Source: Escherichia coli (GTDB taxonomy: Bacteria; Pseudomonadota; Gammaproteobacteria; Enterobacterales; Enterobacteriaceae). From it: 64,000 nucleotides of DNA. The stretch lies in NCBI RefSeq assembly GCF_030013205.1, contig NZ_CP122648.1. The stretch is one strand, 5' to 3'. This document shows, one piece after another, positions 41,901 through 44,900 of this stretch (its first letter is position 1; every line of letters begins with the position of its first letter). A program made the position numbers.

Positions 41901-44900
41901 CATTACCGCCATCAATTGCTCACTCCCGGGGCGCGGTGCGTTGTCATCGAATAAATTGAGCTGCGCGACTCCCTGACTGAAGAAATCTCCCAGCATCACG
42001 CCCGCTTTTTGGTAGCGATGGCCCGCTTGCCAGATGGCATCCAGAGATCGCGTAGCGGCGTTAATGATATCCCTGCTGTCCTGAGTGGGCGTCAGCAGTT
42101 TTACCGACGCGCTATTGCCGTAATAAGGTTCATTAAGCGCAAATGGTGACGTCTTAATAAACGTGGAGATAAACCGACAATATTGATGCTCACTGCGAAG
42201 TTTTTCCGCCGCCCGGGCAGCGTAACTACAAATGGCCTGCCGCATCGACGGATAATCCGTGATGCGTTCACCAAACGAGCGGGAACAGATAATTTCCTGC
42301 TTCGTCGGTGCAAACTCTTCCAGTTGCAAACAGGGTTCACCGCGCAGTTCACGCACCGTTCTTTCGAGCACGACATTAAAATGTTTACGGATAAACCGGA
42401 TATCTGTATCCGCCAAATCGAGAACGGTTTTGATCCCCATCGCGTCCAGCTTTTTGCTGATCCGCCGTCCAATCCCCCAGACTTCATCCACGGGGAGAGC
42501 AGACATTAATTTACGCTGGCGTTCCAGATTTGATAAATCCACCACCCCACCCGTCTGCCGCTGCCATTTTTTTGCCGCATGATTGGCAAGCTTAGCCAGC
42601 GTTTTGGTCTGGGCGATCCCCACACCAACAGTAAGATGGGTACGTTGTAGCACCGTTGCGCGAATTTCTCTGCCAAGATCAGTCAGATCGCGACAATTAC
42701 GCACACCTGTCAGATCGCAGAATGCCTCATCAATACTGTAAATCTCGACGCGGGGCGATAATTCTTCCAGCGTCGACATCACCCGATTGCTCATGTCTGC
42801 GTAAAGCTCATAATTGCTGCTAAAGCAAACCACGCCACAGCGACGAAACAGATCTTTTTGTTTGAACCAGGGATCGCCCATTTTAACGCCAAGCGCCTTT
42901 GCCTCAGCGTTTCGGGCGATAACGCAACCGTCATTATTCGATAGCACAACCACTGGTTTACCCCATAAATCAGGGCGAAACACCGTCTCACAGCTGGCAT
43001 AAAACGCGTTTACATCACAGAGGGCAAACATCAGCGCATCGCCTTAACGACGTGGATCACCACACCAAAGACATCCAGCGTATCTTCGCTACTGATGGTA
43101 ATGGGTGAATATGCACTGTTCATGGGAATAAGCTGCACTGTCGGGCGTAGTTGCAATTTTTTCACCGTAAACTCGCCGTCAACAGCAGCGATGACAATAT
43201 CACCATGGCTGGCGGTAATAGCGCTATCGACAATCAGTAAATCACCGTCACTAATCCCACCGTCAATCATAGAATCACCACTTGCTTTGACGAAGTAAGT
43301 CGCGCTGGGATGCTGGATCAACAGTTGATTCAGATCGATGCGCTGTTCAACGTAATCTGCGGCCGGTGAAGGAAAGCCACACTGAACAAGATCGCTAAAT
43401 AGCGGAAAAGTCACAATTTCGCGGAGATCCGCAGGCTTGATAAACAACATAATAATCTGCCTGAAGTTATACTGTTTTTATATACAGCAGTCTGTTCTTG
43501 CCAGCAGATCAATACTGATTCAGGCTATCAATATTTGTCGCTGCATAGACTGCTGATTTTTCGTTCTCTTATCCTGTGCTCACGCGGCCTTCTGGCGACG
43601 ACGCTCATCCAGCAGAAATGAAAAATATCACCCGGCTAAAAATAGAATAGAAGCATTCGCCATAATGACATTAAACATTGTTTGATATTTATCATATTAA
43701 TAGAAATAAAGACATTGACGCATCTCGCCCGCCTAACTATGAATTAGATGAAGTAAAATTCATTAATAGTTGTAAAACAGGAGTTTCATTACAATTTATA
43801 TATTTAAAGAGGCGAATGATTATGACTGAAATCGTTGCAGATAAAACGGTAGAGGTAGTTAAAAACGCAATCGAAACCGCAGATGGAGCATTAGACCTTT
43901 ATAATAAATATCTCGATCAGGTCATCCCCTGGCAGACCTTCGATGAAACCATAAAAGAGTTAAGTCGCTTTAAACAGGAGTATTCACAGGCAGCCTCCGT
44001 TTTAGTTGGCGATATTAAAACCTTACTTATGGATAGCCAGGATAAGTATTTTGAAGCAACCCAAACGGTGTATGAATGGTGTGGTGTTGCGACGCAATTG
44101 CTCGCAGCATATATTTTGCTATTTGATGAGTACAATGAGAAGAAAGCATCCGCCCAGAAAGACATTCTCATTAAGGTACTGGATGACGGCATCACGAAGC
44201 TGAATGAAGCGCAAAAATCTCTGCTGGTAAGCTCACAAAGTTTCAACAACGCTTCCGGAAAACTGCTGGCGTTAGATAGCCAGTTAACCAATGATTTTTC
44301 AGAAAAAAGCAGCTATTTCCAGTCACAGGTAGATAAAATCAGGAAGGAAGCGTATGCCGGTGCCGCAGCCGGTGTCGTCGCCGGTCCATTTGGATTAATC
44401 ATTTCCTATTCTATTGCTGCGGGCGTAGTTGAAGGGAAACTGATTCCAGAATTGAAGAACAAGTTAAAATCTGTGCAGAGTTTCTTTACCACCCTGTCTA
44501 ACACGGTTAAACAAGCGAATAAAGATATCGATGCCGCCAAATTGAAATTAACCACCGAAATAGCCGCCATCGGGGAGATAAAAACGGAAACTGAAACAAC
44601 CAGATTCTACGTTGATTATGATGATTTAATGCTTTCTTTGCTAAAAGAAGCGGCCAAAAAAATGATTAACACCTGTAATGAGTATCAGAAAAGACACGGT
44701 AAGAAGACACTCTTTGAGGTACCTGAAGTCTGATAAGCGATTATTCTCTCCATGTACTCAAGGTATAAAGCTTATCACATTTAAAAATACAGACGTTTTT
44801 TAAAGATTGAGAGTTACCTGTTGATAATAAGGTATCGGGTAACTCTCATTATGACAGAGCGCTTTCAAAAACAGGGCTACGAAATGGCGAGTATCCAGAC

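Follow-up and report, generated by a model that had tools for sequence, protein, structure and literature searches.

A one-base variant of the predicted LexA operator of umuDC beside hlyE in porcine Escherichia coli

Does an SOS box that looks canonical suffice to conclude that the umuDC operon behind it is regulated in the usual way? The question is raised by a 64,000-nucleotide stretch of E. coli DNA (hereinafter, the window), in a preliminary description of which the operator upstream of umuD was said to match the K-12 box, so that the error-prone DNA polymerase V (Pol V) appeared to be normally regulated, next to a full-length hlyE gene. LexA-repressed Pol V adjacent to the silent cytolysin gene hlyE is textbook, already-known biology, and the present analysis corrects the description in one respect: the operator is an uncommon variant of polyphyletic distribution, altered at a single base that probably also belongs to the -10 hexamer of the promoter. 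It is this shared base that makes the question worth asking.

The umuDC region analysed here is chromosomal and comes from the porcine enterotoxigenic (ETEC)/oedema-disease lineage of E. coli. A 24-kb query (window positions 32000-56000) matched porcine E. coli genomes, namely ETEC4079, ETEC4067, O139:H1 strains and K_EC180, at 99.8-100% identity, and the window aligned across all 64 kb with ETEC4079 (NZ_CP122643.1, 2911732-2975731) at 99.997% identity, the two sequences differing by only one 1-nt indel and one substitution. The interval 43000-44800 is 100% identical to annotated genomes, and the gene order, dsbB, umuC, umuD, then the divergent hlyE followed by ycgN, ycgM and ycgL, is the same as in K-12. 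The elements of the umuDC locus that matter at the outset are:

41763-43031, minus strand: umuC, 422 aa
43031-43450, minus strand: umuD, 139 aa
43470-43489, minus strand: predicted SOS box (LexA operator) of umuDC, which departs from the K-12 box in having G instead of A at position 2 (window position 43488)

The coding part of the locus raises few doubts. UmuD is identical to the K-12 protein (WP_000897378.1), with the Cys24-Gly25 cleavage site, Ser60 and Lys97 all present, whereas UmuC is identical to its K-12 counterpart in 419 of 422 positions and contains no stops; the start of umuC overlaps the stop of umuD by one base (ATGA). The cleavage site and the dyad of UmuD, the intact Y-family polymerase UmuC and the overlap between the two genes jointly identify this pair as the umuDC operon that encodes DNA polymerase V.

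The operator itself reads TGCTGTATATAAAAACAGTA on the umuD strand (TACTGTTTTTATATACAGCA on the plus strand), ends 19 nt from the umuD ATG, and contains the palindromic CTG-N10-CAG core (CTGTATATAAAAACAG, 43472-43487). It is the sole site in the window with three or fewer mismatches to TACTG(TA)5CAGTA, and no such site appeared in 100 dinucleotide-preserving shuffles; for the shorter pattern CTGT-N8-ACAG, the window has three occurrences, compared to an expectation of 0.55. The scan with a LexA weight matrix, which had been named as the check on this site, is easily passed. With a matrix of 27 operators, the heterology index of the site is 3.0, the minimum for the window, the best value in 20 shuffles being 7.0; with a matrix limited to the 16 operators printed in Table 4 of PMC3009722, the index is 1.75, again the lowest in the window, on a scale on which validated sites span 0.14-9.2 (K-12 umuD/sbmC box, 0.14; sulA, 4.6; recA, 5.1; lexA, 5.2). 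The SOS box announced upstream of umuDC is thus in place, as a LexA-type 20-bp palindrome with exactly these boundaries, and judging by its sequence, it is most plausibly a genuine LexA operator in front of umuD and umuC. The K-12 allele of umuDC is known to be bound by LexA and to become de-repressed in lexA(Def) cells or upon DNA damage; its box has a published heterology index of 2.77, among the strongest (PMC2994835), and the promoter, with undetectable basal expression, is among the tightest and latest-induced in the SOS system (PMC2994835; PMC5999292); induction of umuDC by UV has been observed in a tiling-array study.

But is this the K-12 box? In an alignment with a K-12-type genome, the window matches the K-12 operator (TACTGTATATAAAAACAGTA) at 19 of 20 bases, with TACTG in K-12 replaced by TGCTG here, so the claim of a match has to be amended. 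In all other respects the two operators are alike: they are orthologous, stand 19 nt before the ATG between the same flanks, and have identical CTG and CAG cores and AT-rich spacers. The variant 20-mer did not occur in the literature searched. Operator 1 of lexA (TGCTGTATATACTCACAGCA) and the box of a umuD homologue from a Salmonella plasmid (TGCTGTATATAAAAACAGGT) begin with the same half-site, TGCTGTATAT, as the window box, so that G at position 2 does occur in working or presumed LexA operators; these two belong to other genes, have weaker right half-sites, and differ in the register of the promoter relative to the box. The closest parallel to the K-12 operator is that of sbmC (gyrI), which lies at another locus yet consists of the identical 20-mer, likewise has a -35-like hexamer 17 nt upstream, and shows polymorphism at its outer positions as well.

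What would the substitution mean for repression? The base contacts of LexA fall on residues 14-18 of the half-site, with the CAG essentially invariant (PMC5999292). Given that positions 2 and 19 lie outside the contacted bases and that the lexA operator itself carries G there, repression is likely to be kept. The change from A to G raises the heterology index of the umuD box by about 1.6-1.8; even so, the variant box outscores the operators of recA and lexA, which makes it very probable that it has remained under LexA control.

Two further LexA-like sites deserve mention. A weak CTG-N10-CAG 20-mer, ATCTGCTGGCAAGAACAGAC (43490-43509, minus strand), directly abuts the umuDC operator and overlaps the -35 hexamer discussed below. 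An engineering paper that describes a synthetic umuDC-derived promoter containing this sequence along with the main box counts two SOS boxes (PMC9074414); we rejected it as a second box on account of its heterology index of 25, and on sequence grounds it probably is not a functional operator. The intergenic region between ycgJ and minC contains, at 47857-47876, a second good LexA-like palindrome, TACTGGATATTTAAACAGGT, whose index on the matrix of published sites, 6.3-7.0, is one that validated operators also reach; the 20-mer is identical in one K-12 strain and one bovine strain with divergent flanks, and had no match in the literature searched.

The effect of the substitution on transcription depends on where the umuD promoter is located. 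No primary statement of the umuD transcription start or of its -10 hexamer was found in full-text literature searches, and the resolution of the tiling-array study is too low to place the start. The assignment used here is indirect, being derived from a transcript size quoted in a single paper: Lithgow et al. (2007; PMC2156107) employed a fragment extending from -474 to +222 relative to the hlyE start, which includes the first 174 bp of umuD, and reported a umuD run-off transcript of 202 nt, which implies a leader of 28 nt. Whether one counts back 474 bp from the hlyE start or goes 174 bp into umuD, the window gives exactly the same fragment end. The promoter elements that follow from this leader length are:

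43478, minus strand: putative umuD transcription start, an A at box position 12, with a 28-nt leader
43484-43489, minus strand: putative umuDC -10 hexamer, which reads TGCTGT in the window (TACTGT in K-12) and coincides with box positions 1-6
43507-43512, minus strand: putative -35 hexamer TTGATC, separated from the -10 by a 17-nt spacer

With this arrangement, the box would span -11 to +9 of the umuD start, thus overlapping both the promoter and the start point. The TTGATC hexamer is kept at the same distance from the box in a Citrobacter freundii sequence despite a diverged spacer, and the sbmC promoter, TTGTGG-17-TACTGT, has the same layout. The log-odds score of the mapped hexamer pair is 6.5 bits for K-12 compared to 3.2 bits for the window allele. 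On the same simple hexamer score, however, a rival pair located inside the operator, CTGGCA-16-TATAAA, reaches 8.0 bits, above the mapped pair, and if this pair is used, or takes over, the substitution would be silent for transcription. A generic promoter scan returned no umuD promoter, neither of the two candidate pairs complying with its rules, and in the upstream regions of plasmid umuD homologues that we compared, the -10 candidates overlap the left half-site in differing registers.

The scenario that in our view best accommodates these findings can be outlined as follows. A LexA dimer would bind TGCTGTATATAAAAACAGTA and thereby cover positions -11 to +9 of a umuDC promoter composed of TTGATC, a 17-nt spacer and TGCTGT; the bound repressor would block RNA polymerase until RecA-stimulated self-cleavage of LexA following DNA damage. 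Occlusion of this kind is the classical mode of repression, and it agrees with the published properties of umuDC in K-12 given above. Under the G allele, repression would be kept, or at most slightly weakened, and the maximal activity of the promoter may fall below that of K-12. In sigma-70 promoters, no base of the -10 element matters more for melting than the A at its second position, and because the substitution would replace exactly this base, promoter strength may drop. We have high confidence in this overall reading, in which the locus is a chromosomal umuDC control region with a LexA operator laid over the -10 hexamer and the start, repression is preserved, and peak promoter activity is possibly lower than in K-12. 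Since the differing base is probably read by both LexA and sigma-70, arguing from a canonical appearance to normal regulation is unsafe when only the sequence is considered. The notion that Pol V is normally regulated is therefore plausible as far as repression is concerned but less secure for output, given that the strength of the promoter may differ.

How common is the variant, and where does it occur? Alleles were counted with 40-mers in which the variable base was centred, such that every 28-base megablast seed was forced across the variant. By this count, the allele with G at position 2 (hereinafter, G2) is present in 54 of 5,426 complete E. coli genomes, about 1%, and the K-12 allele in 5,196. 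The 133 records found at 99% identity or above with a 60-mer were discarded as a count because they include truncated alignments. A scan of contigs for the pattern including the 3' flank TAAC yielded 12 loci, three of which were aligned, those of C. freundii, Escherichia sp. E1V33 and Kosakonia; no reliance was placed on the Kosakonia locus, only a putative umuD. Both E1V33 and the C. freundii sequence have A at box position 2, which makes G the probable derived state. Of the 54 carriers, 18 are porcine, and those that were checked fall within the window's own lineage; the remaining carriers include O111:H8 and O111:H2 strains, several CDC isolates of Shiga-toxin-producing E. coli (STEC), O78, companion-animal isolates and hlyE-deleted strains. 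One G2 carrier, the O111:H8 strain 1056-1, has a umuC annotated as frameshifted, whereas the other carriers examined have an intact umuC. In two human, hlyE-deleted strains, ECO20 and ECO21, the A to G change at position 2 is found in both the umuD and the sbmC boxes.

The distribution of the carriers is polyphyletic. When some 960 bp surrounding the site were compared among nine carriers and five non-carriers, the G2 allele fell on at least five haplotype backgrounds, each with a near-identical non-carrier neighbour that has between 0 and 5 other differences over this length: none between 510016 and LR-31, one between 21AH004 and RIVM_C037134, two between O78 and O157:H7, and five between the window and E1. 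The existence of such neighbours for each background implies that G2 either arose repeatedly or moved by way of very short recombination tracts. The mirror change in the umuD box, T to C at position 19, is found in 2 genomes only, compared to 54 for the change at position 2; taken alone, this rarity would suggest that position 2 is special. The sbmC box provides a control because its 20-mer is identical, and there the balance is reversed, with the position 2 change in 9 genomes and the position 19 change in 331. In strong LexA boxes, then, outer-position transitions seem to be ordinary E. coli polymorphism with no consistent bias to either side, and both selection and any large effect become less likely as a result. 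Selection acting specifically on position 2, an idea that the polyphyly and the rare mirror change had encouraged, was down-weighted after this control, which suggests that G2 is more likely a tolerated polymorphism.

Could the substitution nonetheless be a promoter-down mutation, with umuDC transcribed much less even once LexA has been cleaved, so that less Pol V is made and the several backgrounds reflect selection? Several points speak in its favour: the 28-nt leader sets TACTGT at -11 to -6; the -35 hexamer is preserved 17 nt upstream in C. freundii, with an equivalent arrangement in sbmC; the hexamer score falls from 6.5 to 3.2 bits and the affected A is the one that matters most for melting; the allele recurs on at least five backgrounds among close A-allele relatives; the mirror change is rare; and the O111:H8 carrier lineage has a frameshifted umuC. 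Against this stand the higher-scoring CTGGCA-16-TATAAA pair within the same operator, which could carry transcription, the intact umuD and umuC in the window and in most of the carriers examined, and the sbmC counts, which have the appearance of tolerance rather than selection. On balance, we regard such a strong promoter defect as rather unlikely. The more specific proposition that the A to G change is a naturally recurring umuDC promoter mutation, with at least five independent origins including the porcine ETEC/oedema-disease clone, that lowers the output of Pol V, appears to us more doubtful still; if it were true, SOS mutagenesis would be naturally tuned by a single base common to the operator and the promoter.

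The opposite effect, in which the substitution chiefly weakens LexA binding such that umuDC is de-repressed earlier or leaks more than in K-12 and SOS mutagenesis is raised, would fit the increase in the heterology index, and given the very tight, late-induced control of umuDC in K-12 (PMC2994835; PMC5999292), even a small loss of affinity could shift the timing. However, position 2 is not among the half-site residues (14-18) whose bases LexA contacts, the score remains better than those of recA, sulA and lexA, and the mirror change, equivalent from the standpoint of LexA, is far rarer at umuD, unlike what selection via LexA affinity would produce; we find this effect improbable. The most serious competitor is complete neutrality, with neither LexA repression nor promoter output altered, so that the locus behaves exactly as in K-12, as the preliminary description assumed. 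Neutrality agrees with the intact genes, with the availability of a rival -10 hexamer and with the frequency of outer-position transitions in the sbmC operator of identical sequence; only the coincidence of the change with the second position of the -10 hexamer, as deduced from the 28-nt leader, speaks against it. We give it somewhat less than an even chance. Should the variant indeed alter Pol V expression, it would be a natural example of livestock-associated and some clinical E. coli in which damage-induced mutagenesis has been tuned in particular lineages.

What can be learned from the neighbouring hlyE? The relevant features are:

43652-43661, plus strand: AGCATTCGCC, the upstream copy of a 10-bp direct repeat found at either end of the 493-bp clyA deletion in B2 and extraintestinal pathogenic E. 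coli (ExPEC)
43681-43696, plus strand: FNR/CRP site TTTGATATTTATCATA, at -69 to -54 in the hlyE promoter and unchanged from K-12
43822-44733, plus strand: hlyE (clyA, sheA), 303 aa
44145-44154, plus strand: downstream copy of the repeat, AGCATCCGCC, 493 bp away, inside hlyE

The gene is an uninterrupted open reading frame of 303 codons, as originally described, and the alignment with reference alleles, the second check that had been named, bears this out. The protein is identical in 302 of 303 positions to K-12 HlyE and to the structures 2wcd, 1qoy and 6mrt in the PDB (E about 1e-191), 1qoy being the monomer and 2wcd the dodecameric pore; the only difference, N220S, is shared with K_EC180, O157:H7 and other strains. 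The full length and the presence of the hydrophobic beta-tongue (residues 177-204, AYAGAAAGVVAGPFGLIISYSIAAGVVE) identify it as an alpha-pore-forming toxin. With the ATG at +73, the hlyE transcription start would lie at 43750. The promoter has the same SlyA Ia site as K-12, and departs from it by three substitutions, near -25, -18 and +12, and by an upstream A-run that is 1 nt shorter. By all appearances, this is an intact pore-forming cytolysin gene with a K-12-type promoter of the FNR/CRP and SlyA/H-NS kind.

The preliminary description also held that hlyE is frequently lost in extraintestinal lineages and that its integrity is, accordingly, informative about the background of the strain. 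The former statement is well founded: Enow et al. detected clyA deletions in 15 of 15 ECOR B2 strains as well as several uropathogenic (UPEC) and neonatal meningitis (NMEC) strains, the main deletion removing 493 bp between AGCATTCGCC and AGCATCCGCC (PMC4164713). Compared to the Delta-clyA alleles I-IV of B2/ExPEC strains (PMC4164713), the window represents the same locus with both 10-bp repeats and the segment between them intact, and it has neither the 493-bp nor the 204/217-bp deletion, nor the 12-bp in-frame deletion that eliminates residues 183-186, all of which are present in the window's HlyE. Among the 5,426 complete genomes, 4,225 cover at least 80% of a 1.8-kb umuD-hlyE query, and most of the others display a pattern of 62% coverage with hlyE annotated as an N-terminally truncated pseudogene; in about 22% of the genomes, then, the hlyE region is deleted or disrupted, matching the published B2/ExPEC deletions. 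The latter statement survives only in part. Because an intact hlyE is the majority state, it is but mildly informative: it argues against a typical B2 background and says little else, considering that hlyE is also lost without B2-type deletions, by frameshift in LR-31 and 2013C-4974 and by IS1 insertion in 510016.

Several features elsewhere in the window were also noted. The periplasmic trehalase gene treA (18310-19803) is shortened to a 497-aa open reading frame and is annotated in ETEC4079 as a pseudogene with an internal stop. A TonB-dependent receptor gene, in an island that also holds an iron ABC transporter and modD, is split into two open reading frames (24776-25990 and 25954-26766), with one A fewer than in ETEC4079 in the A-run at 25857; the missing base is either a true frameshift or an artefact of sequencing through the homopolymer. 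The annotation of ETEC4079 places an IS200C transposase between ycgB and fadR (about 37911-38369) and has an IS2 element (about 59675-60903) interrupting a gene annotated as a cyclic-di-GMP phosphodiesterase, which, judging by the neighbouring genes, we take to be pdeG.
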